Origin: a virus
Taxonomy: Duplodnaviria > Caudoviricetes
Virus record (IMG/VR): IMGVR_UViG_3300020044_008128
Coordinates: 1-58,349 of that record
Length of the DNA: 58,349 nt
Strand: one strand, 5' to 3'
Shown: positions 8,145-29,600 of the stretch, piece after piece
Layout of the letters: each line of letters begins with the position of its first letter
Position numbering within the stretch: position 1 is the first letter of the stretch
Position numbers and translations under genes: made by a program
The notes under the pieces: generated by a model
The model's input: the letters and a program-made list of their open reading frames with translations, nothing else
The model's database searches: none
What the model was told of the DNA's origin: nothing

Positions 8145-8816
8145 ATGGCTACCATATCCCTCAAGAAACCACAATCCTCCGACGAACTCGCTATCGTCCC
8201 ATCCGAAACCTCAACCGCAATCATGGCCCCCACTATTGGAGTCCCTTCTGCTTTTGAAGGTGAGTTCACCGCTGCTGACCGCAAGGTTCCCTACCTCGCA
8301 ATCTGCCAGAAGTCGGGCAAGATGATGGACGACAGTCCAACTTGGCTCGGCAACTTTGTCTATGACAAGCTGCACTGCCTTGGCAACACGCTCAATGTCA
8401 TCTTCTTCAAGTGCAAGAAGAGCTACGTGGAAGACCTCCCCTACGGCTCCGATTCCTTCCCTCAGAAGTTCAACACCATCGCGGAAAGCCGTGAAGCCGG
8501 TGTCGCTGTTCAGGAAGTTGGAGAACTCGACTGCCTGATCGAAGTCCCTCTGGACTTTGAAGGTGCCGAAGAAATCGACGGCAAGGGCTACATCCCTGCC
8601 CGTTACACCGTCCGTAGCACTGCCTATGGAGCAACCGTACGAATCTTGGTCAAGGATTCCAGCCTCCGACTCAAGGGCAACCTTGCTTCGGGTGTCTACA
8701 CCTTGGCAATCGAGAAGAAGACCAACGGTAGCAACTCTTGGTATGCGCCAAAACTCAGCCCAAATGGGATGACCCCAGAAGCTGTCCTGAACTTCATCAC
8801 GGACAACTACTGTTAA
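8145..8816 (+). CDS. Putative single-stranded DNA-binding protein
   Basis: Position between DUF2800 nuclease and polA; beta-rich, aromatic C-terminal KKTNGSNSWYAPK. Confidence 0.55.
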   Translation: MATISLKKPQSSDELAIVPSETSTAIMAPTIGVPSAFEGEFTAADRKVPYLAICQKSGKMMDDSPTWLGNFVYDKLHCLGNTLNVIFFKCKKSYVEDLPYGSDSFPQKFNTIAESREAGVAVQEVGELDCLIEVPLDFEGAEEIDGKGYIPARYTVRSTAYGATVRILVKDSSLRLKGNLASGVYTLAIEKKTNGSNSWYAPKLSPNGMTPEAVLNFITDNYC

Positions 8817-8831
8817 CCCCCACATAGCCGT

Positions 8832-8855
8832 TGCTCCGTGGCTTAAAACGGAGCA
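8832..8855 (+). other. Stem-loop downstream of SSB (TGCTCCGT-GGCTTAAA-ACGGAGCA)
   Basis: Perfect 8-bp inverted repeat; no U-tract. Confidence 0.55.
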
Positions 8856-8867
8856 CCCCCTTCAGAT

Positions 8868-9116
8868 ATGCTTATTACCCGACCCACCTCCTCCCCTACC
8901 CGCATCCCCCCAAGTGATGCCGGAAGAAAAGCTGGAGAACTCACAAGTGCCTTGATGGCAATGCCTCCACAGACGACGATCACAATTGACTTTGAGAAAG
9001 ACACTGCCTCAAATCGCCTGTATCCGGCTGTCAGTCGCTACGCCAGAAAGATCAAAGGGAAATTTGTATGTCGGAGGCTTTCCAAACGATCGTTCGCAAT
9101 TTTCAGAATCAAATGA
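8868..9116 (+). CDS. Small basic putative DNA-binding protein
   Basis: Similar layout to 14743..15018 (..YARKIKGKFVCRRL..AIFRIK). Confidence 0.55.
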   Translation: MLITRPTSSPTRIPPSDAGRKAGELTSALMAMPPQTTITIDFEKDTASNRLYPAVSRYARKIKGKFVCRRLSKRSFAIFRIK

Positions 9117-9346
9117 GCACATTCAAAACTATCTCCCGAGCCGAAGCAGTTGCACAGGGCATGAAGCCCCTGACCATTCCATCCAACCCTGAAGAGCCTT
9201 TCCTCCAGAATGTCATCAAAGACATGCAGCGGATCAAAGGCACCATCTGGGCACTCGTCCAATACAAAGTGGGCGGGGCATTGGAAGTGTGGCGGGTTCC
9301 CCTTGAACCCCTACACACCGATAAGGGCGAAAGACTTTCCATGTAA
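9113..9346 (+). CDS. Hypothetical protein
   Basis: ATG 9113 overlapping upstream stop. Confidence 0.55.
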   Translation: MSTFKTISRAEAVAQGMKPLTIPSNPEEPFLQNVIKDMQRIKGTIWALVQYKVGGALEVWRVPLEPLHTDKGERLSM

Positions 9347-9352
9347 GACAAG

Positions 9353-9568
9353 ACTGGGTTAGCGATCTAAAGACCGAGAGGTCAAGGAGCGCCAGACATG
9401 GGAACCGCTGTTACTCCAGCGTAATCGCAGGATGTAGAGTCTATTGCACCTGCCAGCCTCGGCTCCGTCACTGTAACGACGGGCAATTAAACGGGAAGCC
9501 GAAAGGTGCCTACCCACACAGGTCACAACGAAAGTCGGGAATCGAGTACGGCGTGACCCTTCCCACCA
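9353..9568 (+). ncRNA. Candidate structured non-coding RNA, unknown class
   Basis: Non-coding gap dense in hairpins with GNRA loops (GACC-GAGA-GGTC, GCC-GAAA-GGT, AC-GAAA-GT), long-range stems, 3' end CTTCCC-ACCA. Confidence 0.6.
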
Positions 9569-9588
9569 ATTTCCTCCAATACAAATAC

Positions 9589-11217
9589 ATGAAAACCATA
9601 GCTGTTGACTTTGAAACATCATATACCAAGGACAGGTCTATCTCCACTCATGGGACGTTGGGCTACCTATCGCACCCAGACACCGACATTTTTATGGTCG
9701 CACTTGCGAGCGAGGAGTTTACCTTCGTCGGACCTCCTATGGAGGCTCCTTGGGATTTGGTTCGCGGGAACCGCGTCATTGCACATAATTTTAGCTTTGA
9801 GGTCGCAGTGCTGCGGGAGTGTGAGCGGCGTGGGGTCATTAAAGAGCCTCTCAACGAAACGGGATTTTGCACAGCTAACCTTGCTGCCTATCTGCAAGCT
9901 CCGCGAAACCTCTTGGATGCCAGCCGTGAGTTACTCGGTATCCAGCTTGACAAATCTGCTCGCGACAAGTTCAAAAATAAGAACTACCACACCCTCCCCG
10001 AAGCAATCAAGGAGGAGATCAGAGGTTACTGCCTATCCGATGCCAAAGCCTGCTACACGATCTGGGAAAAGTATGCTCACCTCTGGCCTGAGCATGAGCA
10101 GCTTTTGTCTTGGCACACGACCATGATGGGTCATCGTGGCATCCCTGTGAATAGCGAAGCCGTTGATAACGGCATCCGTACCTACAAGGAAATCCTTTGG
10201 GGTTTGGAGAAGCTGATCCCGTGGGCTGGAACCAATCCTGTGCTGTCTTTGCCGCAACTGCGTGACGCTTGCCGTAAAGCAGGCATCCCTGCGCCAGAGA
10301 GCACTGCCAAGGACAGCGAAGAATTCCAAGTTTGGGCAGATACTTACGCCGACAAGGTTCCTTTCGTTGCTGCGGTAAGCCAGTATCGTTCTATCAATCG
10401 CTCTTTGGGGGTCTTGGAAGCCATGCAGGTTCGCACGCTGGACAACCGTGTGCGCTACGGGCTGAAGTATTGTGGTGCCGTTCCGACTTTCCGGTGGAGT
10501 GGCGACACGGGTCTCAACGTGCAGAACCAATCTCGCGAGCCTGTTGGCGGAATCGACATCCGCACCATGTTTGAGGCACCTGCTGGCAAGTCCTTTATCT
10601 CTGCAGATATGAGTCAGATTGAGCCTCGGGTTGCTCTTTGGGTGACGGGGAACACCCCGCAGCTTGATTTGGTTCGAGGTGGTATGTGCGTCTATGAGGT
10701 TCACGCTCGCCAAACGCTTGGCTACGACCTGTCTATCAGCCTTAAAGATGCGGCAAAAAAGGACGTGGCATACGCCAAGATGCGGCAATTCTCCAAGGCA
10801 AGGTGTTTGTCCGCAGACACCCTTGTTTTGACCCACAGAGGATATATTCCTATTTTGAAGGTTGAACTTACGGACAAATTGTGGGACGGTTATCAATGGG
10901 TTACTCATGATGGGGTGATCTACAAAGGAATCCAAAAAACTATTCGATATGAAACCGACACCTTTACCGAAGACCACAACTTGTACCTTGGAGAACACGA
11001 AAGAATCCAAGCAGGACAAGCGAAAGGGGAGCTTGCATTATCAGTGGCAAGGTACCGAACATCCACATCCTCTTGGTACGATGTTTGGGCATTGGCGTGT
11101 TGTGTCCTCAAAACTTACTCGCATCAATGGCTACCCCTACACAAACTTACTCTGCACCCACTGTGGGAGAGAGTTTGTTATTCTCTTGAAGAATGCCGAA
11201 AAAGGGCTAACCAATAG
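9589..11217 (+). CDS. polA: DNA polymerase family A, N-terminal fragment fused to N-intein
   Basis: Exo I IAVDFET, exo II AHN, motif A SADMSQIEPRV, motif B start RQFSKAR then intein block A CLSADTLVLT and block B TEDH. Confidence 0.92.
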   Translation: MKTIAVDFETSYTKDRSISTHGTLGYLSHPDTDIFMVALASEEFTFVGPPMEAPWDLVRGNRVIAHNFSFEVAVLRECERRGVIKEPLNETGFCTANLAAYLQAPRNLLDASRELLGIQLDKSARDKFKNKNYHTLPEAIKEEIRGYCLSDAKACYTIWEKYAHLWPEHEQLLSWHTTMMGHRGIPVNSEAVDNGIRTYKEILWGLEKLIPWAGTNPVLSLPQLRDACRKAGIPAPESTAKDSEEFQVWADTYADKVPFVAAVSQYRSINRSLGVLEAMQVRTLDNRVRYGLKYCGAVPTFRWSGDTGLNVQNQSREPVGGIDIRTMFEAPAGKSFISADMSQIEPRVALWVTGNTPQLDLVRGGMCVYEVHARQTLGYDLSISLKDAAKKDVAYAKMRQFSKARCLSADTLVLTHRGYIPILKVELTDKLWDGYQWVTHDGVIYKGIQKTIRYETDTFTEDHNLYLGEHERIQAGQAKGELALSVARYRTSTSSWYDVWALACCVLKTYSHQWLPLHKLTLHPLWERVCYSLEECRKRANQ

Positions 11218-11807
11218 TTGCTCAGAATGTAACGTAGTTTTACGAAACCTTGCGCGAAACTTTAAGAAGTGGGGGCGGGACATGGACGACAACGACAGGG
11301 TTCTTCAAGTGAGGTGGAACGCTATCCGGCATCGTTGTGAGAATTGCGCCTCCCCAAACTACCCCAACTATGGGGCGAGGGGAATCCGGCTTTCCCATGA
11401 GTTCCTTAGCGACGTAGCTTTTGTTGATTACTTAAAGTCGCTTCCCGACTGCCCTACTAAAGTCTCAAAACAACACACAATAGATCGCATCAACAATGAA
11501 AAAGGATATGAACGAGGAAACCTCAAGTTCTCAACTCACCAGCAGCAAATGCGGAATCTCCGCACAACTCAAAGGATCACACATGAAGGCAAAACTTACG
11601 ATGCTCGCACATTCGCTGAACTTTTTCTGCATCGGTGCCGCACGGCAACTGTTGTGCGCCTTGTTAGACAAGGCTTGTCAGCGGAGCAGATTATCCACAA
11701 GGATGCCACGGACCCCCACATCGGAAGACGCTGGACAACCTGTGTATGACATCCTGAACGCGGGACCAAGGCATAGGTTCTGTACACCTAGCGCAGTTGT
11801 CTCAAAT
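10804..11807 (+). mobile_element. Split intein with nested out-of-frame HNH homing endonuclease
   Basis: Intein begins at Cys codon 10804 (frame 1) and ends PVYDILNAGPRHRF...VVSN at 11807 (frame 3), followed by Cys+1. Confidence 0.85.
11081..11749 (+). CDS. HNH homing endonuclease (start uncertain, frame open from 10949)
   Basis: FGHWRV, CTHCG, SCSEC, WNAIRHRC..YPNYGARGI, TIDRINNEKGYERGNLKFST..QQMRN. Confidence 0.88.
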   Translation: MFGHWRVVSSKLTRINGYPYTNLLCTHCGREFVILLKNAEKGLTNSCSECNVVLRNLARNFKKWGRDMDDNDRVLQVRWNAIRHRCENCASPNYPNYGARGIRLSHEFLSDVAFVDYLKSLPDCPTKVSKQHTIDRINNEKGYERGNLKFSTHQQQMRNLRTTQRITHEGKTYDARTFAELFLHRCRTATVVRLVRQGLSAEQIIHKDATDPHIGRRWTTCV

Positions 11808-12371
11808 TGCCTTGGACTTGTGTATGGGCAGTACAGCAAAGGCTTCCAAGCCTACGCCAAGACCTTTGGGCTAGACATTACTTTAGAAGAAGCAGACCAC
11901 CAAGTTAAGCAGTATCGGGCTATGAACCCCTTGCTGACGAAGTTTTGGGCTTCTCTTGAGCTTGGCATGAAGCAGTCTAGGGGGCAGACTTTCTCAATAG
12001 AGTTGCCCAATGGTCGCTCCATGAATTACTTTGACGTAACCATTGGACGTAACGAGAAAGGTTTTCCCGACCTTCGCGCTCGCCCTGTGATGGGTGGGGT
12101 TCCTACCTATTATACCGCAGGGAAATTTTTTAATAATGTGTGCCAAGGAACGGCTCGGGACGTGTTTGCAGAGAAGATCACCGAGATCGAGTACAAGCTT
12201 GGGCTACCCGTGGTCCTAACCGTTCACGATGAAGTCTTAGTTGAAGTGGATGCCGCTGATGCCAAGGATGCCCAACGTGAAATCTCCAGAGTCATGGCAA
12301 CCGCTCCTGAATGGATGCCCGACATTCCCTTGGCCTCAGACTGTAACATCATGCAAGTTTATGAAAAGTAG
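11703..12371 (+). CDS. polA: C-intein fused to DNA polymerase A C-terminal fragment (start uncertain, 11496-11703)
   Basis: Intein blocks F/G then CLGLVYG (rest of motif B), NNVCQGTARD, motif C LTVHDEV. Confidence 0.9.
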   Translation: MPRTPTSEDAGQPVYDILNAGPRHRFCTPSAVVSNCLGLVYGQYSKGFQAYAKTFGLDITLEEADHQVKQYRAMNPLLTKFWASLELGMKQSRGQTFSIELPNGRSMNYFDVTIGRNEKGFPDLRARPVMGGVPTYYTAGKFFNNVCQGTARDVFAEKITEIEYKLGLPVVLTVHDEVLVEVDAADAKDAQREISRVMATAPEWMPDIPLASDCNIMQVYEK

Positions 12372-15055: not shown

Positions 15056-16201
15056 ATGACTACAGACACAATCACAATCAAAGGCAGAGAGTTCCACATG
15101 TTCAAAGAGCCAGCCACAGGTCGCTGGAGAGTGCGGAAGCGCACGGAAGACGTATACATTGACAAATCCACTGGCTGCACTGAACTGACCGAAGCCCGTC
15201 GCTGGGCCAAGGTCTATGTGGAGAAGGAACTTGGTAACGCTTATCGCTTGGCTACCGGAGGACATACTTTAGAAGAAGTTGTCCAAGCCTATCTGTCGTT
15301 CCCAAAACCTGTGCGCCAGTATGTGGCGGAAGCCAACGTGGCTCGCCTCCGCAACATCGTGCAGATTGCTATGGGCAAGGAACTCCACGAAGTCCGCGCC
15401 CGCGCCATCACCTACCGTCTTTGGGAGGATTTCATTGCCTTCAAGCATGGCGGCAAGATGGACTTGTCCACACCTCGACGGGAGAACATCAGCATCGTGG
15501 GTGCCGTCCGTTCTGCTTGTTCTATCTTCCCCAAGAAGCTGGATCACCGCTATGCCGAAGCAGGCATCAATCTGGACTTTGCCAATCTCCGCAGGGTTCC
15601 GTCTCTACCCACCTTGTCGGTAGCTCGTCATGCGTTGCCTGAAGGATGCCTTGGTTCCCTGATCAATGCTTGGAACTCCCTGAAGACTTCGGAATCCGCT
15701 TCTGATCGGGCTATCTATACTACTGTGGGTTTGGCTCTCTACGCAGGGCTTCGCTCCAGCGAGATTGCAGCCGCTCAGAAGCATTGGCTGACCTCCAGCG
15801 GCACTGAGATCAAGATTGTGCTCAAAGATCGCCCTGAGGAGGGCTTCCGCACCAAGACGGGTTCACAGGCTTTGGAGAACTCTTGGCTCAGTGGCTTGGT
15901 CATCGACCTTGGCTTCGCGTATCACTTGATGTCGCTGCCAGAAGGCAAGCTGGTTCAGTTCCCGCAGTCGTCTGAAGATTGGTTCTTCAACACGGTGGTC
16001 AACCGCTGGATTCGCCAATTCATCACCAAAGAGATGGATGGCAAAGGTCTGCATCGTCTGCGGGCTGAATACGCCAATGCGGTCAAACGCAAGTATGGTG
16101 ATCGTATCCTTGCCAACCAAGTTGGTATTGACGCAGCCCGACTTGCTTTGGGCCATGAAACTTCCGGCACTACATTGCGCCACTATTTGCAGACTCCGTA
16201 G
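15056..16201 (+). CDS. int: Tyrosine recombinase / integrase
   Basis: Catalytic set R (AGLRSSEI), K (RTKTG), HxxR (LHRLR), LGH, Y (RHY); N-terminal arm-binding-like KSTG..ELTEARR. Confidence 0.9.
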   Translation: MTTDTITIKGREFHMFKEPATGRWRVRKRTEDVYIDKSTGCTELTEARRWAKVYVEKELGNAYRLATGGHTLEEVVQAYLSFPKPVRQYVAEANVARLRNIVQIAMGKELHEVRARAITYRLWEDFIAFKHGGKMDLSTPRRENISIVGAVRSACSIFPKKLDHRYAEAGINLDFANLRRVPSLPTLSVARHALPEGCLGSLINAWNSLKTSESASDRAIYTTVGLALYAGLRSSEIAAAQKHWLTSSGTEIKIVLKDRPEEGFRTKTGSQALENSWLSGLVIDLGFAYHLMSLPEGKLVQFPQSSEDWFFNTVVNRWIRQFITKEMDGKGLHRLRAEYANAVKRKYGDRILANQVGIDAARLALGHETSGTTLRHYLQTP

Positions 16202-17602: not shown

Positions 17603-20600
17603 TCACTTGTAGCGGAGTTGTTTCTTGGCGTAGGCAGTGGCTTCCGTTCCGATGTTACCGAGTGCCTTGGAGGCGGAATCATCGTCCATTTTCTCCAACC
17701 TTGCAAGGTCACGAATCATTGCCTTCTTGATGAACTGCCCACGAACGGCAACGTAATCCTGCCAGTTGGAATCTGACATGACCCCGTTCTTGTTTTCAAG
17801 GGCAGTGCGTTGGGGCAGGCCGGGGGCAATCCCCCTATCCAGAATGAACCCGTAAACCTTCTTGTCGTTACCCGTAGGGGTTCCGGCAACCATGAGCGGG
17901 AAGCCTGCATACCAAGCACGTTCGTTGCCCTCAGTCCATGCGGAGGAAGGGTTCAAACCTTGGGGATCGCCAAGAGCATTGACAGCCCGCTCAGTGAGCA
18001 GGGATCGAGCAATTGGGAGGTTGAGGTAGAGAGAACCTTCACGCCCACGGAACCTGTCTCCGCCAGTCATCAGTTTTTCAACTGAAGAGATCAGACCCGA
18101 GAATGGGATGATGGGGTTGAGCTTGTAGAGAGCCGTTCCAAGAACCTTGGAATCAGGGTCAACTGCCAGAGTCGCTCCGATGGTGGATTTGGCACCAAAG
18201 AAGGCGGCTTGCTTGCTCCAGCCGGAGAGAACTGCTGACATATACTCCGAGAAGTATTGGGCAAACTCACCGTCGTTCTCTTTCCGGTTCAGGCGCATGT
18301 CGTCCATAGCCCCTACCATCAGGAGAGCAATCTTGAGCGGCTCCAAAGGCCCACGCATCACGTTTAGAGAGACGATCTTGTCTCCGACTCGCATTTCAAT
18401 GGAGCCTTGGCGATGCCCAGCTTTTTTCCAAGCATCAAGCTCAGTCTTATTGGTTGGGCCTGTCAGGGTAACATTGAAGAGGTCATCATCCTCATCATCA
18501 CTCAGGGCTTTGAGCGCCATGAGAATGGAGATTGCAGTTGTCCCAACGATGGCTTCCACTAAGCGTTGACGAATCTGCTCGTTGGTAGCCATCGACTGCT
18601 GGTAGAAAGGATTCGGGCCTACCAGCAAGTCTTTGCGGGCTTTGGCTGCAATCGCATACCGGATCAGACCATACGGGGTAAACCACATGGCTCGGTTAAG
18701 AAGGTTAGACGGAATACCAAAGTAACCAAGAAGCATACGCCCCACGATTGGGTGCTTTTTGATCACGTTATTCCCTGCCCCTTGAATGGCGTTCACGATG
18801 TTATTGATCACGTCCAAATTTGGAGAGTCCTCTCCGCGATGAACGCCCATCTCATAAGCAGATTCTTTTTCCACAAACTCAGGGAACTGGACATCTGGAA
18901 GGATGCCCTTGATAGCGGAGTTGATGTCGCGAGCCACATTGTCGCGGATTCGGATGTTGGATAGAGTGCGCTGAAGGCGGGCGGCACCCAGAGCCTGTTT
19001 AACAGCCGTGGCTTGAGACAACAGGTTGCCCTGCGATGCCCGTCGAATATCTCCACGGATGTCTTCTTCAAACTGGCGGGCTTCCACGGTCAGGTTAGCG
19101 TCCAAAGGAGCCGTAACCAGATCAAGGATTTTTGCCTTGGCATCTGGGAGTCCACGGAACCCTTCAATTGCGTTCTCGTAGCGGTGGAGAACACCGAGTT
19201 CATAAGCCAGCCTTGGGCCATAGACATTGGTGCCAGAGAATAGGATAGCTCTTACCTGTTGAATCTTGTTCTGATCCTGAACTCCTGCACGACGCATCAC
19301 CTCAAGGGCTTGAGTCTTTCGGAAGTAGTTGTCCATCATGGAGAACCAAACATGGTCAGTCGCCATGAGGACTCGGCGGGTAACGTCCGTGTAGGACTGC
19401 ACCACGATCATCCGAGCCTTGAGCTTATCAAACGCTGAAGTCTTTGGATCATTGATCTTCTGCAAAGCCTTTACCATTGGCTGCTGCAATGTAGTGGCAT
19501 TCATAATGACTCGCGACCAGTCATTGGTGTTAGCACCACCCGTGATACTGAACTTTACTTCCTGCCGGATGATGGAAGCTGTATCCTGTAACACCTTGAA
19601 GATGTCTTTGACCGCTTGGATGTCTCCGCGAGCGATTGCCGCACCCATGTCAATACCCACGCGAGTCATCAACGCTCCCATTGGGGCAATGATGTTGATG
19701 GCGAGAGTGCCAAGACCACTAAGAGCACTGTTGTTGTAAGAGATGGCAAGACGAGTCAAGAAGCCCATTTCGAGCTTCCGGCGAGCAAGAAGCTCATAGA
19801 GTTCCTTGACGGCAATAGCATAGTCGTGGACTCGCTGATCTGCCTTGGCTTGCGTGATCTTGAGATCGAGTTCACCAAAGGCTTTGTAGTCGCTCGGTTG
19901 CAGGTTCTCGTATCCAGCAGCCTTGGCAAAACTTTTGGTTGGGTCAAGTCGGTCTTTTCCAAGACCCATACGGATTAGCTTTTGCAGCTTCTCCACTTGC
20001 TTCTCCGCCACATTGACGTTGGTGTTCTCAGCTTTCTTCTTGAGTTCGGCCTGCTTGCGGCTGGAGATTTTGATCTCAAACTTCTCCATTGCCTTTACCT
20101 GAGCAGCTACCACATGCTCGTCAAAAGCCGCATCAATTGCCGCAGCAGAGTTGTCCGCAGCTTGTGAGGTATAACCATTGCGCTTCAGCCAAGACTTGAT
20201 GGCTTCAAGGCGTAGCTTTGGGTCGTTCTGAAGAGACGCATCAGAGGTGATGTAGTCAACCAAGACCCCCATCTTGGTCGTGGAAGTTTCCTCTCCTTTA
20301 CGAAGAGAACGCTCAGTCATTGCCAAGTCATAAAGACGATTGGCTTGAGCTTCCGTGGCACCAAAGGCAGCAGCTTGAGTGACAAACAATGGGCGAGTAA
20401 TATCAATGGCGACTAAGTTACGAACCAACTTACGGAGGGTTTCCGAAGGGGTAGGCTTGGCAGCATTGGTTGGCTGCTTGAGGTACTCCTCGTAATTCTT
20501 GATCAGGCGTTCATGGGTTTTATTGATGCTCTCCGAAGCGGCTTGATTCATCTTGGCAACGGTAGTCCCGAAGATGAGAGCTTTGTCCGCATCACTGAAC

Positions 20601-23600
20601 TCAGACATTGCACGGTCAAGTTCAGATGGGAGGATGCCACTGAGGGTTAGCACTTTCCGCAGCGCAGCATCCTGCCAAGCAGCATCATTGATGTCGGCTG
20701 GGTTAGCAGCTTTGATCTGGGAAACCAGAGTCTTGCGGCTACCCGCCAAGAGGGACTCCTTGGTACGGTCCAGCATCCTTTGGAGAGCCGCCTCCTTGCG
20801 GACCAAGTGCTCCCCATAAGTCGCCCTTGCCAGTTCTCCAGCAATTTTGGCAGGCACCTTCAAGGCTTCCACCAGAGGAGTCATGGCATCCACGAAGTCC
20901 TGTTCCTCCAGCTTCTTCTTGTTACGGAGAAACTCCTTTACAAGGGCTTTGAGCTTGACGGTATCCTCAGTCTTGAGGTTGTCCTGAACCTCTTTTTTCT
21001 TTAGGAACCTGTCCGTGATCTCCTCCGCTTCCTTCTCGGCATAGCGTGAAGATGTGCTCCATGCCGTAGCGATGAGTTCCTCCTTCACGGAGTCCTCAAT
21101 ATCAAAAGGTTCGAGTTCTTTGGCGAGATCATCCGCGAAGTACTTGAATACGGTGTGCTTCGGAGTGTTGGCGATGTTGGCGTCCACTGCCTTCTTGATG
21201 ATGGCGTAGATGGTCGGAGCCTTCTTTTCCTTGGAGTACTTCTTCTCCAAGAAGGCTTTGAGGTTGGCGAGGACAGCTTCCGCAGCCTTGGTGGCTTCGT
21301 TCTGGTTCTCCTCCTCTTTCACGTCCTCGACATCCTCCAAGTCTTCTACCTCGCCTTCGGAGGCAGTCGGGATATTGGGAGTTGGGGAAGTGACTTGGGG
21401 GGCAGGTTGTTTCGCGCCAAGAGCTTTGCCAAGCTCCTTGCCAAGCTTGGCGATTTTCTTTCTCGAATCGTCCATAGCTTTACGCACGTCCTCAATAGAC
21501 GCAAAAACCTCCAAAGGCTCTTCAAGGCCGAGATCATCAGAGAGGCTTTGGGCTGCGCTAGACGATGCCTTTTTCTCCTCCATGTCTTTTTCCAACTTCG
21601 CTAGCTTCCCAAGACGGAGGATTTCTTTGGTGTACTCCGACCACTTGCGCTTGATCTCGCCGCCCGTGAATTTGAGAGCTTCGGTGATGCGCTCAGCAAG
21701 ACCGTCCTGCGCTCCAACCTTGATACCCGAGACAGCCTTCTTCAGGTCTTCCAGAGCTTTGGCATCGAGTTCAGCGTTATTGATAAGCTCTTCCACAGAC
21801 CGGAGAGTATTCTCCGCATCCTCGACACCTTCCTCTTGGAGATGCTTGATGGCAGCGGCTTTGGCGGCTTGCTCCATCTTGTACATGGTATCCAAGATTT
21901 CCATCTTGTATGCGGAACGGGATTGGAGCAAACGACCCGCAGAAGAGTGGGTCAGGAAGGCACCCATGACGATGCCATTCCAGTTCTGGCGTAGCATCTC
22001 GAGCAAGCGAGAGTCCCCGTTACGAGCCATCTCAAGCCCCGCTTGGGTGAGCACCATCTGGAGAACCCCAGTAGCTGCGTCAGGTTTACCTTGTTGGTAG
22101 GTGAGGCCAAACGTGCTACCCCTTGCCGTAAGCTGTGTGGCGACTCCAAGGAGGCGATCCACATCATCTTTGCCCACAACCGGACGACCTTTGTCGGAGT
22201 CCAGTCGGAGGTACTCATACGCCAAGCTCTCGGAAGCTGCGATGGACTGCACATCCGCGATGGAGCCTTCCAAGCCGAGAATCTGGGAAAACTTCAATCC
22301 CAGCTCTGGGTTTGCCTCTTTATAGGCTTTCAAAGAGGCTTTCTCCTCGTCATTGTAAGGACTCAGGAGATTGGTTGGAGCATCTGGCAGCGAACCAAGG
22401 TCAGGAGTGGATTCACGGATGTCCGATACTGCTGCGACTGGTTTTTCCATCACTCGAAAACTGTGTTCTCCCACCAGTTCAAGCCCCGAGCGACGAGCAT
22501 ACCTTGAAAATAAAGCTGACTTTCGCGGACTGTTAGCTACAAAAGTATAGGTCACTCCGGGATTTTTTCGAGAATGGATTCGGAGAAGTTGCTCCAAATA
22601 GGGCATCAGAGCGTTCATTGTTTTGAAAGCTCCTTTACCGACGGACTCTCCAATACTGTCCGCCACTGAAAAATGAACAGAGTTGTCTTTCCCTATCATT
22701 ACCGAAGCAACAGTATCCCCAAGCATGAATCGACGATGAATAGATCCATTTTCTTCGTAAATAGTATTGTTGGGCTTGCCCCTATTGCCCGTTTGCAAGA
22801 AAATAGGAAGCCCATATTCGCCTACAGCGAAGGGAACTTGATTCATCGCCTGACTTTGTTCCTTAGTGGCTTTATTATCCTTATCACCAGTGAACTTCGC
22901 CCAATGGGCTTCATAAGCCTCCGTGGAGTTTTCAGGCAGTCCTTCCGGAACTGGGTAATCAACCCCAAGTTGTTGAGCATCAGACAGTCTTTTGCTCGTT
23001 TCTTTGTCCACCGGGGCAACTGATTGGGAGCCACCCTGCGCCCGCTCAGTGAACTTGGCGGCGTTGATAGCCTTGATGAAAATCTGGCCCATGTCTTCCA
23101 AATGCTCATCTGGAATTTGAGCGGACTGTGGCAGACCAAGGGCAGAGTTGATGAAGGACTTCACCCAGCGGAGGAACTTCTGGAGCTTGGTCTTTTCTAC
23201 AAACGAAAGGCTTCCTTTGCGAACAAACAAACCTTCAATCTGGCGAACAAACACTTCTTCCATCGCCTTTTCCTTCACATCCATATCTGTGCGCCAGTTG
23301 GCATAGGCACGATAGCCGGAGACTTTTACCAAACGCTCAATCTGTGCCTCGGTGACATACTCCGAAATCATGGATAACCATGAAGCATGGAGCAGCTTAT
23401 CGGTGCTGTTACGAATGACGGCTGTGCCGTGGTGCATCAACTCATGGAGGATGGTGGATGCTGCGGCAATGTCAGCATTCTTGTGGAAGATAGTCTGCTT
23501 CACCTGATCAATGATGACCACCACTTTACCATTGCTGTAGTAGCCCTGTGCGCCACTGCGGACACTGGCTCTCTCGGCAGGGGTAAGGGACTCGTCTGCA

Positions 23601-26600
23601 AGAAGTTCCGCAGAGGTTGCAAGGCGAACCATGCGACCTGCCATAGGGATCAGTTTGGCAATCAAGGCCAGACCGTTCTTGGCATTCTGTTCGGTGATGC
23701 CGCCAACAATTTTCCCAGCAGGAGGTTGAGTACTTAGATTAAGGCTGTTGGTATTTCCAACTTGGGCTGCAAGACCTCCAACGGGTGGGGTGTCTGGAAT
23801 CCGCTCTATCTCCACGACTTTACCTGTGCTCAGATTGGCTACCCAGTCTTGATTTACAATCTTGTCCGCAGCAATAGTAACCTCCCCACGAACTAGCATG
23901 TTCATGCTGTTGAGGCGTTCGCCCACGCGAGAAGCCAATCCGGCTTCATTGAAGAGATTGTTGGCGAATAACCAGAAGCCGCGAGCAACACTGGTCATGC
24001 CATAGCGAACTGTTCGACCTGCAACCTGTTCCACTTCAGAGGCTCTCCAAGGAAGGTTGAGCATGATTTGGGTGCGCGGATACTTGCCACCCTCACTCGT
24101 ATCGTGGAGGGACAAGCCCGTGCCTCCGCGAGCCATCGTGGCGACCATGATAGGGGCAGGGTTTGGAGAGTCTGGATTCTCCCAGCGGCTCAGAGAGTCT
24201 TGTCCAACTTTTCCTGCTTCGTCGCCAGTGTAGAAAACCACCTGATCCCCAAAGGCTTTCTTGAACTTATCTTGGGCGGACTCAAAGTTGATGCTACCCA
24301 CCCCCTGTTCAATCAGGTTGCGGAACATCTCGATCACGCCGGGGAGATTTGGAACGCCCTCCGGCACCACGAACTGGGCATCACGGTTGACCGCTTTAGC
24401 TGCAAGATACTCGGCTTGCGCGGCATCCCACTTCTCCACGATCTCCACCAAGTTGCGATCACTCTCAGACTTAGTTTCCACAAAGATCACCACCTGACGA
24501 CCTTCGGCAGCTTCTTTACGAGCCAAGTCAATGGCGGCATTGGCTTTAGATGCTTCCAAGATGCGCTTGAGAATGTTGGTGTAGAAACCCTTGTCGTTAG
24601 ATGATGGCTTCTCAACCTTATCAAAGGCAGTCTTGATCTCATCGGCTAGCACACTCCATTCAGCGGAGCCTTTGACCCCTTGGAAAGTAGCTTCTGACAT
24701 GCCATCAGGAATGCGAGCACTGCGCTGAGAGAACATGCCGTTCTTCCGCAGAAACTCGCGGGCATAGAGTTGCCCTGCCTTTTTATCAGCAGGAGTCATC
24801 TTGTCAAAGTCCAAGGAGGACGGCTTACCATCACGTTGCAGCACCTTGGCTCCAGCGATAGCCGCGAAGTTGTACCAACCGTCATCAAACAGCCCACGCA
24901 CTTCTCTCAAGGAGTCAAAGACTCCAGTAGCCTTGAGATACTCCATCTGTTCAATGGATTCATACGGGGTAGCAGTAGTGAGAAGTGTAAACTTTGCTTT
25001 ACTCATCCACTCCGCAGCTTTCTTGGAACGGGAAGAGGTATCGCTCAAGCCGTAGCGGACTTCATGCGCTTCATCAAAGATCAGAACATCCGAATCGGAA
25101 GGCACATACTTGGTGCTGTCGTCCAGATTGGAGTAGGTCATAAACTCGATATTTTGCACTTCAGGGAAGTTGGCAAAATCTTCTTTGACCTGAGCAATGA
25201 GTTCCTGACTACGGGTAACAAATACAATCCGTCCTTCAGGATTCCGGCTGCGGATATTGGCAAGAGCCGAACCCATCACGAAGGTCTTTCCTGTGCCTGC
25301 GCTGGAGGCAAGCAGATACATCGGCTTCCCATCGGCTTGAGCTTTGGAAATCAGCATGGAGTCCCACTGCTGTTCTTCCAAGGCTTGGGAAGGAATCGAC
25401 ACTTTTCCACCTTTAACGGCTTCTTGGCCCAATGCTCGATTCAGGGCACTCTTGAAGAACTCAAAAACCTTGGTGGTCATGTAAGACCTAGCCGTTTTAC
25501 CCGCTGGAGGCTCGCTCTGATTCTCCTGATCCGCCAGCTTCTTGCGCTGCTCCTTCCTGATCTTGTTGATCTTGGAAGCCACAACAGCTTCGTTGCCAAC
25601 AGCGGTGCCGTAGGCTTCATCCGAGATGTTGTGCGCCAACTCAACCACACGGGCATAAGTCTTGCTGACCCAGCCCTTTTGGTTGTCGTAGGAGAAGCCA
25701 TTGGAAACCAAGGCAGCTTTTCCACGCTCCGTAGCGGCTTCACCTTTGGTAGCGATGGCAATTGATCCATCCGGCAGGGTTGTGGCAACGAAGCCAGCAG
25801 CGTTGATGTTGGTTAGCGCATCCGGCAGCTTCTCCTCAAACTTCTTGCGCTCAGAGGCAACCTCTGACTCGCTCATGGCTTGCTCTTTCTTGTAGGCTTT
25901 GTACTCCTCGGTCTGAGAAATCAAGTCACGCAGTTTGTTAATCTGCTCGGTAGTTTCCGCATCAGCGTTGGCGAGAGCAGCAGGCTCAAAGATGGTCTTG
26001 AGGAGGTATTCAGGTTTGAGTCCAAACACTTCGGCAACCGTTTTTCTGCGCTGCTTCCCAAAACCCATTTTCTCTTTCAGAGTCTCGATACTGAGCTTCC
26101 CATTGATAGGCTCGGTTACTGGCTCTTCTTCGATGGTTGGAGTGACTTCCGTGGGCTGCGCCGACTTCGTGGCAGCAGCAACTTCCGTGGCTTGAGCTAC
26201 TTTCGTGGGTTTCACCGACGTTGTGGCGGGAGCGACTTCGGTAGCCTCCATCTGGGCAATCAGCTTTCTTGCTTCTCTCGGCAAAGGGGCTTCCTCAAGC
26301 TCCTCATTGTTAAGGGCAAGCTGATTCCAGACTCCAGAAAGGTAGTCTTTGACGTTATCCCAAAGATCGGGGAACTGATCCCGAACGTCTTGAGCAAAAT
26401 CAGTGAACTTCACAGCCCCGGTTTCAGCGGAGATTTTTGCGAGTTCAAAAGCCGCAGCGAATTGCTCGGAGTCCAAGCCAGCCATACTGGTTCTCCCCAA
26501 AGATTTCCTGAACTTGTCCGCAGCCGCTTGTCTCCGCTTTGCCAAGTCATCAAGTTTTTCTTGGGTGACTTCTTTTCGGGCAAGTCGAGACTTCTGTCTT

Positions 26601-29600
26601 TCAGTTAGCTGTGGAGCCTCCGTGGGCTGCGCCGACTCCGTGGCGGGCGCAACTTCCGTGGCTGGCGCAACTTCCGTGGCTGGCTTCTCCGCAGCAGGTA
26701 TCTCCATCTTGCCTTGATCCTGCTCGGCTTTTCCTGCGCGGGTAGCCGCACCAAGTTCAGCAAGCAAGTCGGGAGCCTGTGGCTTTGCTGTTTCCCCTTT
26801 GTTCTTGGGGCGAGTGGATTGGGTTCCCTCAAGGAGACTTTCAAGCCCAGCTTGTTTCTTGGGAGTCGCTACCTTGGTTACATAGAAAGGCTCTTCCAAA
26901 CTGGCCTTCTGCTCCCCAAAGGTAGGGCTGGTTAAGACGACTCCGACAGGGGTTCCATCCGCCTCGTCATAGGTGATTTCTGTGACAGTAAATTCTTCGC
27001 CCAAGATGGTGTATTTTTTACCAACAACAACCGCAGAGGAAACGATACGCTCTTTATCCTCGGCGGGAGTAGTGACAGCTTCCTCGAAAGCCAAGGTCTG
27101 TTTCTCCTGCTCGTCCATCACTGCTTGTTGTTGGTCTGCAATGCTTCCGGCTTTGCGCTCCTTGCTGGCTTTGACCATCGCCTCAATCAAGGCATCCGCA
27201 TTTGGTGCGGAGATGAAGTTCGCCTCAAACGCTAAATTGGCAACAACATCAATCGTGTTGGAGTCAAAGGGCATCGTGTCCGAAACCGTCCAAAGTTTGG
27301 CTTTCTCCCCTTCATCAAGCTCAACATCCCGTAAAGGGTCGCGTTCTCCGCCAACGGATTTCCCAGCTTTTTTCTCAGCAGCTTTGAACTTTGCACTCGG
27401 CACAACCATGTCCGAATCAGCCACAAAATTGAGGATGTCGGGCTGCTGCGTATTGGGGTTGTCTGAGAAGCGGGAAGTTTTGCGGTAGCTTTTTGGCTTC
27501 TCGACGGGGGCTTCCTTTTCCTTCCGAACAGAAATTGTCTCCCCCTTTTTGAGAGTGTTAGCAATCTTGTTGGCAAACACCTTACCAAACTTGTCCGCTA
27601 GGGAGCCAATGGCAAACTCATTTTGCAGAGCTTCCAAGGAGAGATAACTGGCTTTGTAAACTCGCCCATCACTTTCACGGTGCTGCCATTCAACATTCCC
27701 ATTGGGGAGCATCTTTGCCGTGTACTCTTCGGGGATAGCCATTTTACCCTTGGGGACGACAGCCTTCTTAGCCTCGGGCGCGGGGGCTACTTCCGCCACC
27801 ACTGGAGCGGTAGCAGGTGTCGCCAAATCCTTGGCGATCTTTTTGGCGGCATTCTTTGCTGGGGTGAGGTTCCCAAATTCCTGAACAAACTCTCCCGCCG
27901 CATTATAGATGGCATAGAAGTTCTTGGCTTTGGGGTTAGCACGGCTTGGTTCCTGCTTGATCACGCCCACTTGGGCGCGCCCAACCATGATCTTTTGATC
28001 TTGCGCTGTTCCAGCAGGGCGAGGCTTGGTATCTGCAACAATTTTGACTTCCTCAGAAGGAGCCACCTCTGTAACCCGAACAGTCGGAGCCTGTGCGGGC
28101 CTAGCCATGACGGTAGGCTTGGCGGCAACTCTGGTGGTAGTGACGGCTTTCCTTTCGGGAGCTACTGTTTCCTCAAATGGTTGTCCTTCGATAGGTTGGG
28201 CTTCTATCGTTTCGCTAGAACTTGGCGTAACGCGACCACTACTGGGGGCCGAGTCTTGGGCTGTGGGGGCGGGTATGCTGCTTGGAAGATCACTTTGAAT
28301 TTTGGCATTTGGGGCGGGGAGCGGGGTTTCATCCTCGTATGGTTGCCCTTCGATAGGTGGGGCTTCTACTACATCATTGGCGGCACGCACAGCTTCTGCT
28401 TTACGCACTTGCTCCTCATAGGCGCGAATAGCCGCCGCTTTTGCCTCTTGGAATTTGTCTTCTTCAGTAGGCACATAGAACTCCTGCCCTTCAATCGGAG
28501 GAGCTTCCGCTGGAGTAGCAGCCGCTTCCACGGCAGTCTGCACCAAAGCATTCTGAACCTGCGGGGCATTTGCATCTGCTAAAGCTGCGGCAGTTGCAGC
28601 AATCTCTTCCGCCTTGGCTTTCTGGGCTTTGACGTATTGATCTTTGGCAAGACCAACCAAGCCAGCACCGCCACCCATGAGAGCAGAACCAAAGAGTGTA
28701 GCGGGAGCAATCTCCTCAAACCCTTTAGCGATGCCAGCGGCTCCGGCATACGGGTTGGCAACTTCATCTGGATTCTTGCCTGCCAGAATAGCTTCCATCT
28801 TGGCTTGATCCCAGCCTTGCCCACCGACCTGAGTAGCGGTTTCGCCTGCGAGTTCTACGCCAACGTCGGCGGCAACCAAACCTGCTTTGGTGAGCGCTCG
28901 TTTTGCCAAAGTGGTGGCGACTTCCTTGCCAATATCTTTGAAGAGGAGCTTGCCAACGCCCATTGTGAACACGTTGCCAATAGCTTCTGGGCCTGCTTCC
29001 CACAGAGCAGTATTCTTGGCAATCGGGAGAAGTTGGGCGTGGAGAGCTTTCTCTTCGTCTTTGTCCAGAGGGCGACCCTTTTCCTGAACGGACTTTTCGT
29101 TTGCCAGCGCGAAGGCATCGTCCAAGAAGGAAGCCCCTGCCATGCGGTAGGCAGCGGCTCCAGAAGAAGCCAAGCCTCCAATAATACCTACGGCGGTGCC
29201 AATAGCGGAGCCAGCGACTGCGCCGGGGGCCACGCCAACACCACCAGCGGGAGCCGTAGCTGCTCCGCCAATAGCGGCACCAATAGGCAAGCCTGCGGCT
29301 TCGCCAGCAGCCCCACCAAGAGCAGCGGCTCCCATCGCAACACCGGAGAAACCAGAACTGTTGCTGAACTCGCGTCCAGCACTTCCAACTGAAGTCGCCA
29401 ATCCTTGAGCTTCGCGTTGAGCTTGATCCGCTTGAACGGCTTCGTCAGCCGCCTTCTTCTCCGCCATAGCATCTCGGTAGCCTTGGGAACGCTCGCTGGG
29501 CATAGCCAAGCCTTCCTTGAGTTGGTAGGCAGCAGCCTTGACATTGGTGGGCAGGTTACTGGCAATGGTGCCAAGAGCGTTGAGGGTATCTCCAAAACCA

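Follow-up and report, generated by a model that had tools for sequence, protein, structure and literature searches.

A composite non-coding locus upstream of polA in a phage record from IMG/VR

What occupies the widest gap among the replication genes of a phage? The stretch of DNA analyzed here, referred to as the window, is an IMG/VR virus record of 58,349 nt, whose first 16 kb carry replication genes on the plus strand, among them those for helicase, exonuclease, methyltransferase and a family A DNA polymerase (Pfam and PHROG scans). Among the plus-strand genes that were taken from the ORF list over roughly the first 16.2 kb, no gap is wider than the one in front of the polymerase gene, polA. 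An earlier note, made from the letters of the sequence, had described the region as a single unclassified RNA of about 215 nt, ending in an acceptor-like stem and ACCA. The hairpins that it listed and the terminal stem are all present at their given positions, as included in the features below, and the locus is real, non-coding and composite.

9068-9346, plus strand: ORF of 92 aa from the ORF list, bounding the gap on its 5' side
9347-9588, plus strand: non-coding gap of 242 nt, from the end of the 92-aa ORF to the polA ATG at 9589
9354-9356 with 9393-9395, plus strand: P1, CUG paired with CAG, closing the variable hairpin P2
9355 and 9512, plus strand: strings TGGGT and ACCCA, both present
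9362-9392, plus strand: P2, inside P1, with apical GACC-GAGA-GGUC (GACC-GAGA-GGTC at 9372-9383)
9398-9405, plus strand: linker AUGGGAAC, the aligned counterpart of the M3 tail "AGGGAC" in L093 and L087
9406-9421, plus strand: P3, hairpin CGCUG-UUACUC-CAGCG (CGCTG/CAGCG), with 100% of its alignment cells paired
9427-9453, plus strand: P4, hairpin (GCAGG/CCTGC) with the conserved loop GAGUCUAU at 9437-9444
9453-9485, plus strand: module B, ultra-conserved, 32-33 nt, with the hairpin CCGUC-ACUGUAAC-GACGG (CCGTC/GACGG) at 9465-9482
9486-9492, plus strand: linker AUUAAAC and a recombination joint, with relatives diverging from the window at 9486-9489
9493-9568, plus strand: tRNA-like minihelix (TLE), 76 nt, as predicted by MFE
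9493-9498 with 9559-9564, plus strand: acceptor-like stem of the TLE, 6 bp (GGGAAG/CTTCCC)
9498-9507, plus strand: small hairpin of the TLE (GCC-GAAA-GGT)
9521-9526 with 9553-9558, plus strand: 6-bp base of the long TLE arm (GGTCAC/GTGACC, 9521-9558), with further inner pairs
9565-9568, plus strand: discriminator A of the TLE, then CCA
9569-9588, plus strand: trailer AUUUCCUCCAAUACAAAUAC, doubling as the 5' leader of polA
9589-10806, plus strand: first segment of polA, with ATG at 9589 and an exonuclease DxE motif (PHROG 17 and Pfam DNA_pol_A)

The gap and its relatives

The polA product has 123 relatives among predicted proteins at E ≤ 0.001. Searches with the whole gap against 80 IMG/VR loci of polA relatives (blastn, nhmmer) returned nothing similar, with a best E of 0.3, and in the two closest of these loci small ORFs reach right up to polA. 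No match was found in GenBank phages by blastn of 9000-9900 and 9440-9500. Four metagenome contigs (L082-L085) encode a polA 84-87% identical to that of the window. L082 is 92% identical to the window over 9336-9485, compared with 73-75% in the flanking genes. L083/84 are 97% identical up to 9401, jump to 9454-9487 and then carry about 1.2 kb of other sequence before polA; L085 has none of the gap sequence, and module B is missing altogether from L002, L003 and L085. A gapped P3-P4 pattern retrieved five IMG/VR stretches, comprising two known ones, two new relatives (L128 and L129) and one unrelated coding sequence (L127), and L128 and L129 retain 9347-9485 with few substitutions and differ 3' of module B. 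The 5' 19-mer of module A gave no IMG/VR hits. The 92-aa ORF, for which Pfam and PHROG hold no match, is kept as protein-coding DNA in L082-L085 and in L128/L129.

Contigs from four public DNA runs show the same pattern; for 8900-10100 the listing of runs contained no RNA run. Two of them skip 9402-9453 (X1, X3), and two rejoin the window at polA after 1,168 or 234 other letters. Together with L082, L083 and L129, all that reach module B leave the window sequence at 9486-9489, and 9490-9590 is covered by none of the four. These alignments divide 9354-9568 into three pieces, and the recombination joints fall near 9401/9454 and 9487. Since relatives differ after 9487 and some delete 9402-9453, the 215-nt stretch is not one evolutionary unit, and the single RNA proposed in the earlier note is not supported: close relatives keep the 5' part and module B and do not share the 3' part. 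The non-coding character of the gap, also part of that proposal, is borne out by indels of 2 nt and 52 nt in the relatives. At the site of the window's 76-nt unit, L083/84 have an ORF of 248 aa between module B and polA (L083 2231-2977).

Elsewhere in the window, an ORF at 15056-16201 has a weak integrase match (phrog_1, E 2.7e-8), hinting at a temperate lifestyle, and an ORF of 4095 aa at 17603-29890 (minus strand), with no PHROG match at E ≤ 1e-5, opens the minus-strand arm.

Paired hairpins, module B and a larger modular RNA

Folding energy does not separate the gap from chance. Against dinucleotide shuffles, the MFE of the 244-nt gap gives a z-score of -1.24 for the plus strand, where the fold was matched by 20 of 200 shuffles, and -1.08 for the minus strand; the corresponding values are -1.42 for 9353-9568 and -0.97 to -1.66 for its sub-pieces. 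In the comparison with shuffled sequences suggested earlier, energy alone thus does no better than chance (z -1.0 to -1.7); what goes beyond chance is the comparative evidence, and the argument depends on it. Rfam 15 yielded nothing at gathering scores over the whole window and nothing at E ≤ 10 within 9200-9750, where the group I intron and known ribozyme models also remained without a match at that threshold, in agreement with the view that the region belongs to no Rfam 15 family.

Covariation was counted for a model of five hairpins with 32 pairs on an alignment of the window, L082, L129 and L083. In these four sequences 96.5% of 114 cells are paired, and both sides have changed in three pairs, in P1, P3 and the B hairpin (shuffle mean 0.8, at least three in 4 of 500 shuffles; slid controls 0-1). 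These are U9355-A9394, which is C-G in L082, C9408-G9419, which is A-U in L082 and L093, and C9465-G9482, which is U-A in L129. When P4 is compared with its counterpart in L093/L087, where the stem has 8 bp, five more pairs differ on both sides, and the loop GAGUCUAU and its three closing pairs are identical. From these alignments, of 4-5 sequences only, P1, P3 and P4 appear to keep their pairing through compensatory changes, and the conserved U-G pairs fix the RNA on the plus strand. P2 is weakly supported by comparison, because its apical loop differs in L082 and L083 and two of its pairs are broken in L129; in addition, L082 and L129 both carry G9431A, which disrupts a pair of P4.

The search for homologues and covariation that had been called for earlier therefore gave a divided answer, with compensating pairs in P1, P3, P4 and the B hairpin, and with two broken pairs in P2 and one in P4. 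Two particulars of the older description were not confirmed by it. In place of the GNRA loop GAGA of 9372-9383, L082 and L083 have loops of 6 nt. The long-range pairing of TGGGT with ACCCA is not supported, as T9355 covaries with A9394 instead, and its 3' partner occurs in no relative. Both GAAA loops of that description belong to the 3' unit, which is present as a single copy.

Six distinct loci (L102, L097, L091, L092, L090 and L094) have a multi-module RNA that ends on its 3' side with module B and measures roughly 245-490 nt from its 5' module to module B. Two of its modules, M1 and M2, lie up to 190 nt apart and form a predicted long-range helix of about 20 bp, without a broken pair in nine loci and with four pairs that vary on one side only; a small helix upstream of this M1:M2 rod shows changes on both sides. 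After M1:M2 comes either the M3 hairpin or module E, then variable hairpins and then module B, and tRNAs or tRNA-like elements follow the multi-module RNA or are interspersed in its loci. Exact copies of M2 alone occur in 11 IMG/VR stretches, of which six are new. Neither module B nor module E is present in 185,579 prokaryote genomes. An Rfam scan of 15 loci at gathering scores called tRNAs only, and under permissive settings the L102 gap matched unrelated families five times, at 12-16 bits. Exact-pattern retrieval biases this sample of loci towards invariant modules, and the homologue search covered the fetched loci. The loci, which include L102 4243-5221 (minus strand), L091, L097, L092, L090, L094 and L103-L108, were observed in replication modules on IMG/VR contigs of about 15-64 kb.

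The window shares the 3' half of this arrangement. Its segment 9398-9453 aligns with the one that follows M3 in L093/L087 and belongs to the P3-P4 sub-domain, P1/P2 (9354-9395) stand at the position of the M3 hairpin (CCAG...CUGG) of the larger relatives, and module B is exact at 9453-9485. M1 and M2, and with them the M1:M2 rod, are absent from the window at up to three mismatches, as is the core 16-mer of module E and with it the module E hairpin. With P3-P4 and B but without M1, M2 and E, the window thus carries a reduced, 3'-half version of the multi-module RNA. P3-P4 are dispensable in close relatives, because L083/84 and two of the run contigs delete them.

A 29-mer of module B is exact in 17 IMG/VR stretches and also in L083/84 and L082 (three copies in L082), and was found neither in one genome each of 185,579 prokaryote species nor in GenBank phages. 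The 8-nt loop of its hairpin carries U-GUA-A, and a natural variant carries GCA; a loop variant is found in L108. In each of the 13 loci listed the module lies within a non-coding gap of 300-800 nt and is co-oriented with the next downstream ORF. Elsewhere among phages it stands in front of other genes, which speaks against the idea of a role specific to polA. The single strand 5' of its hairpin has a distant complement of at least 7 nt in 3 of 18 loci (control mean 2.3), which is no signal. Being invariant, loop included, module B probably binds something sequence-specifically, and its likeliest role is as a site at which the RNA is bound or processed in a sequence-specific way.

Three other identities were considered for module B and rejected. 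A solitary CRISPR-like repeat does not fit copies spaced 180 and 377 nt apart, with no array and oriented with the genes; an attP site or host tRNA fragment does not fit a sequence found in 0 of 185,579 genomes, with no T-loop and with the integrase-like ORF 5.5 kb away; and an N4-type hairpin promoter was rejected as the 4095-aa ORF has no PHROG match.

The tRNA-like 3' unit and its possible processing

In the MFE fold of the TLE the acceptor-like stem and the base of the long arm make an unbroken paired run of 6 + 6 = 12 nt directly before ACCA, that is, an acceptor/T-like stack with CCA. The fold is not a cloverleaf and lacks a T-loop, a D-arm and an anticodon arm, ARAGORN calls no tRNA gene in the window, and the Rfam tRNA model RF00005 does not match. 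The earlier statement that the unit is not a tRNA is upheld by these results, and its suggestion of a tRNA mimic gains from the minihelix and from the AUUUCC trailer, which also follows genuine CCA-encoding tRNAs in related phage loci. The motif NCCAAUUU likewise follows both tRNAs and tRNA-like elements in related loci, and the polA leader ACCAAUUU...AAUACAA is common to the window and L082.

Against 107 loci, blastn-short with the TLE gave only chance hits of 12-14 nt, a TLE 20-mer had no hits in IMG/VR, and the 18 stretches retrieved by a gapped pattern of ACCA-trailer and polA leader were all unrelated by inspection. As a single copy without a homologue, the TLE has no covariation support of its own. 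At the same site in L082 (2931-2981), after a similar AAUUAAAY linker (AAUUAAAU, compared with 9486-9492 in the window), stands a different element of 51 nt, which again has 12 nt paired before ACCA; its terminal stem, of 7 bp, has a different sequence, and it further contains a 4-bp hairpin and an arm of 5 bp whose loop has 7 nt. This stem has G-U as its third pair, accompanied by a discriminator A and an encoded CCA, and the TLE of the window has G-C there. A G-U third pair with discriminator A and CCA is the main mark recognised by alanyl-tRNA synthetase.

Such elements recur. Among 31 NCCAATTT sites in 25 sources, a 7-nt terminal stem scores at least 6 in 14 (16.8% at random), and at least 6.5 in 10 (2.9% at random positions), two of the 10 being duplicate sequences. 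Exactly 12 nucleotides are paired before NCCA in 7 of 11 such elements, including the TLE, and the elements range from tRNAs called by Rfam (L090, L095) to mimics of 42-124 nt. The TLE fits a class of truncated tRNA mimics, of the form "stem + NCCA + AUUU", with an encoded CCA and a common trailer.

How might such a locus work? Within 8800-9800 no sigma-70-like promoter and no intrinsic terminator was found on the plus strand, which makes read-through transcription from the upstream genes into polA the simplest reading. The gap would then be transcribed on the plus strand together with the replication genes. In the resulting transcript, 9354-9453 (P1/P2, P3 and P4) would be the shortened 3' part of a larger modular phage RNA with an M1:M2 rod, module B would mark the 3' border of that RNA, and the host enzymes of tRNA maturation would take the TLE for a pre-tRNA. 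The main requirements of bacterial RNase P are an acceptor/T stack and an RCCA end, and on this basis we propose that RNase P would cut at 9492/9493; beyond 9568, the AUUU trailer would be cleaved by an endonuclease. These cuts would release an upstream RNA ending in module B and a piece of 76 nt, and leave the polA mRNA with a short leader. The data show the sequence elements, how they are conserved and covary, the mosaic structure and the genomic context of the locus; transcription, cleavage by RNase P and other enzymes, and any role of the released RNAs are inferred. That the modules act as RNA-level elements is quite probable in our judgment, and we put the full explanation, including the processing mechanism, at about 0.5.

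Alternative readings and known systems

The window may carry the minimal form of an undescribed class of modular RNA in uncultivated, apparently freshwater, phages, with the tRNA mimics, and perhaps the B hairpin, serving as decoys or baits for tRNA-recognising host enzymes or defence nucleases and not as mere processing signals. Full-size members would have the M1:M2 rod, hairpins with conserved loops and the invariant 32-nt B and/or E, beside arrays of truncated tRNA mimics in the replication module. Taken jointly, these two suggestions are tentative and fall somewhat short of an even chance.

As the window lacks the 5' domain of the modular RNA, its copy may be a relic. Repeated recombination at a hot spot in front of polA would then have left debris in the gap, made up of a decaying 3' fragment of the larger RNA and a degenerate tRNA-like remnant, with no present function. 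The missing M1, M2 and module E are what one would expect of such debris, as are the absence of 9402-9453 from L083/84, X1 and X3, the sequence between B and polA, which is different in every relative, the lack of module B in L002, L003 and L085, the broken pairs in P2 and P4 and the TLE without a second copy. Decay is harder to reconcile with module A, which at 92% identity between the window and L082 is better kept than the flanking genes (73-75%), and with its few substitutions, three of which are compensatory. Module B, moreover, is whole in every gap variant that carries it, deleted forms included, and the TLE holds a perfect 12-bp stack together with the ACCA and the trailer of its class. 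We regard a functionless remnant as unlikely.

Module B could also act as a site in DNA, be it a promoter for an unidentified polymerase or factor, an origin element or a recombination site, with hairpins that are incidental. Such a site would account for 29-32 invariant nucleotides, loop included, for the position of B at recombination joints and for its single copy per genome (in the window and in 4 of 4 whole records searched). It would also suit the neighbourhood of B in the replication/recombination module, where 9 of the 11 loci scanned have polA, helicase, exonuclease or Sak4-type genes next to it, the five distinct loci in which an ORF begins with ATG about 9-29 nt 3' of B across an A/C-rich stretch, and L099, in which B stands alone immediately after the stop codon of a gene. 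The compensatory change from C-G to U-A in the B hairpin of L129 points the other way, and so does the contiguity of B with covarying RNA hairpins and tRNA-like genes. An RNA polymerase was recognised in none of the 46 window ORFs scanned against PHROGs, a promoter for a phage polymerase would be expected in several copies, and the gap is not AT-rich. A purely DNA-level role is as doubtful, in our view, as a relic.

A similar comparison can be made with T4-type phages, in which mobile regulatory cassettes (promoter/stem-loop elements) lie at gene-shuffling joints. Module B resembles these in being short, highly conserved and placed at the borders of swapped gene and RNA cassettes in a hyperplastic region; it differs in that it has no sigma-70-like promoter, is single-copy in most genomes and is joined to covarying RNA hairpins.

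That the whole stretch is one structured RNA of 215 nt, a ribozyme or an entire tRNA mimic held together by the TGGGT/ACCCA pairing, is highly improbable. All of its elements exist and the MFE fold of the whole gap joins both halves, but the halves occur together in no relative, T9355 covaries with A9394 and not with 9516, the z-scores are about -1.2 to -1.4, and no ribozyme or other Rfam match appears at E ≤ 10. A group I intron was likewise rejected for the gap, which has no such Rfam match and is followed by a complete polA N-terminus. A protein-coding gap, either as an N-terminal extension of polA, whose frame has no stop over the 88 codons before ATG 9589 (open from about 9325), or as the 87-aa minus-strand ORF of the ORF list (9359-9622), is extremely improbable: the openness of the polA frame over 9325-9588 looks like chance because relatives break it, with frame-breaking indels and unrelated sequence in the gap, the frame has no ATG, GTG or TTG before 9553, phage polymerases align with polA from query residue 1 and relatives share its start Met, and the minus-strand ORF matches no Pfam or PHROG family.

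The processed modular RNA that we favor has partial parallels among known phage RNAs. Phage tRNA-like RNAs include the C4 regulatory RNAs of P1/P7, the CI RNA of P4 and the stable RNAs of the T4 tRNA cluster. With tRNA and tRNA-like substrates of RNase P the TLE shares a 12-bp stack, made of a stem of 6-7 bp on a second helix, the discriminator A, the encoded CCA, the AUUU trailer and a length of 76 nt. It differs from them in having no cloverleaf arms, the Rfam tRNA and C4 models and ARAGORN give no match, and the likeness is one of sequence and predicted fold.

GOLLD and ROOL are described, in passages of a recent preprint, as large ornate RNAs of phages and prophages, often near tRNA islands (bioRxiv 10.1101/2024.12.08.627333). 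As far as those passages go, the larger relatives of the window RNA are similar in being multi-module and phage-borne, in standing beside tRNA or tRNA-like arrays and in having conserved blocks between variable hairpins. The window itself has only a 3' fragment of about 130 nt, and the likeness is one of genomic habit, known here from sequence. The GOLLD model (RF02032) matched none of five records at E ≤ 10, the window included, and the ROOL model (RF03087) matched none of five at E ≤ 10 in a search whose own controls were also silent.

A survey of intergenic regions in IMG/VR lists 8,495 unnamed short candidate structured RNAs, including tRNA-like ones, in the passages available to us (PMC10690425). 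Those candidates share with the present elements the IMG/VR source and the form of short (29-151 nt) intergenic phage motifs. The main-text passages of PMC10690425 do not describe module B, module E or P3-P4, and single modules may already be among its 8,495 candidates. A literature search found no description of the M1-M2-M3-B-E RNA family, and one may still exist.

Few natural RNAs are as poorly understood as the large phage RNAs that lie next to tRNA islands, GOLLD and ROOL among them, and another family that shares this genomic habit without being related to them would make their function more accessible to comparison. It helps such comparison that the modular RNA exists in full, reduced and minimal natural versions. 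The truncated mimics with encoded CCA suggest that host tRNA processing may be used to punctuate or stabilise early transcripts, or that the mimics act as decoys. Module B, in turn, is a rare invariant element of 32 nt common to otherwise dissimilar phages and located at joints of cassette swapping. The locus is thus of more interest as an entry to an unclassified family of modular phage RNAs than as a single RNA of 215 nt.

Two further observations concern the surroundings of these elements. Small basic proteins are encoded next to module B or tRNA-like elements in L082 (1873-2115), L085 (2679-2921), L099 (33-266) and L102 (4430-4717), and downstream of the tRNA-like element in L129. Those of L082, L085 and L129 have a common N-terminal motif by inspection, and the L102 ORF (95 aa) matches phrog_7595, of unknown function. 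In the window, polA (9589-12371) is broken by an insert of about 1 kb (10806-11810), which may be an intron or the mark of a split gene; at E ≤ 10 it matches none of the Rfam models, those of group I introns included, apart from a chance hit of 16.7 bits. An uninterrupted relative of 592 aa (P0002) aligns by tblastn with residues 1-407 on 9589-10809 and residues 401-592 on 11793-12368, and an HNH endonuclease ORF (10949-11749) lies inside the insert.
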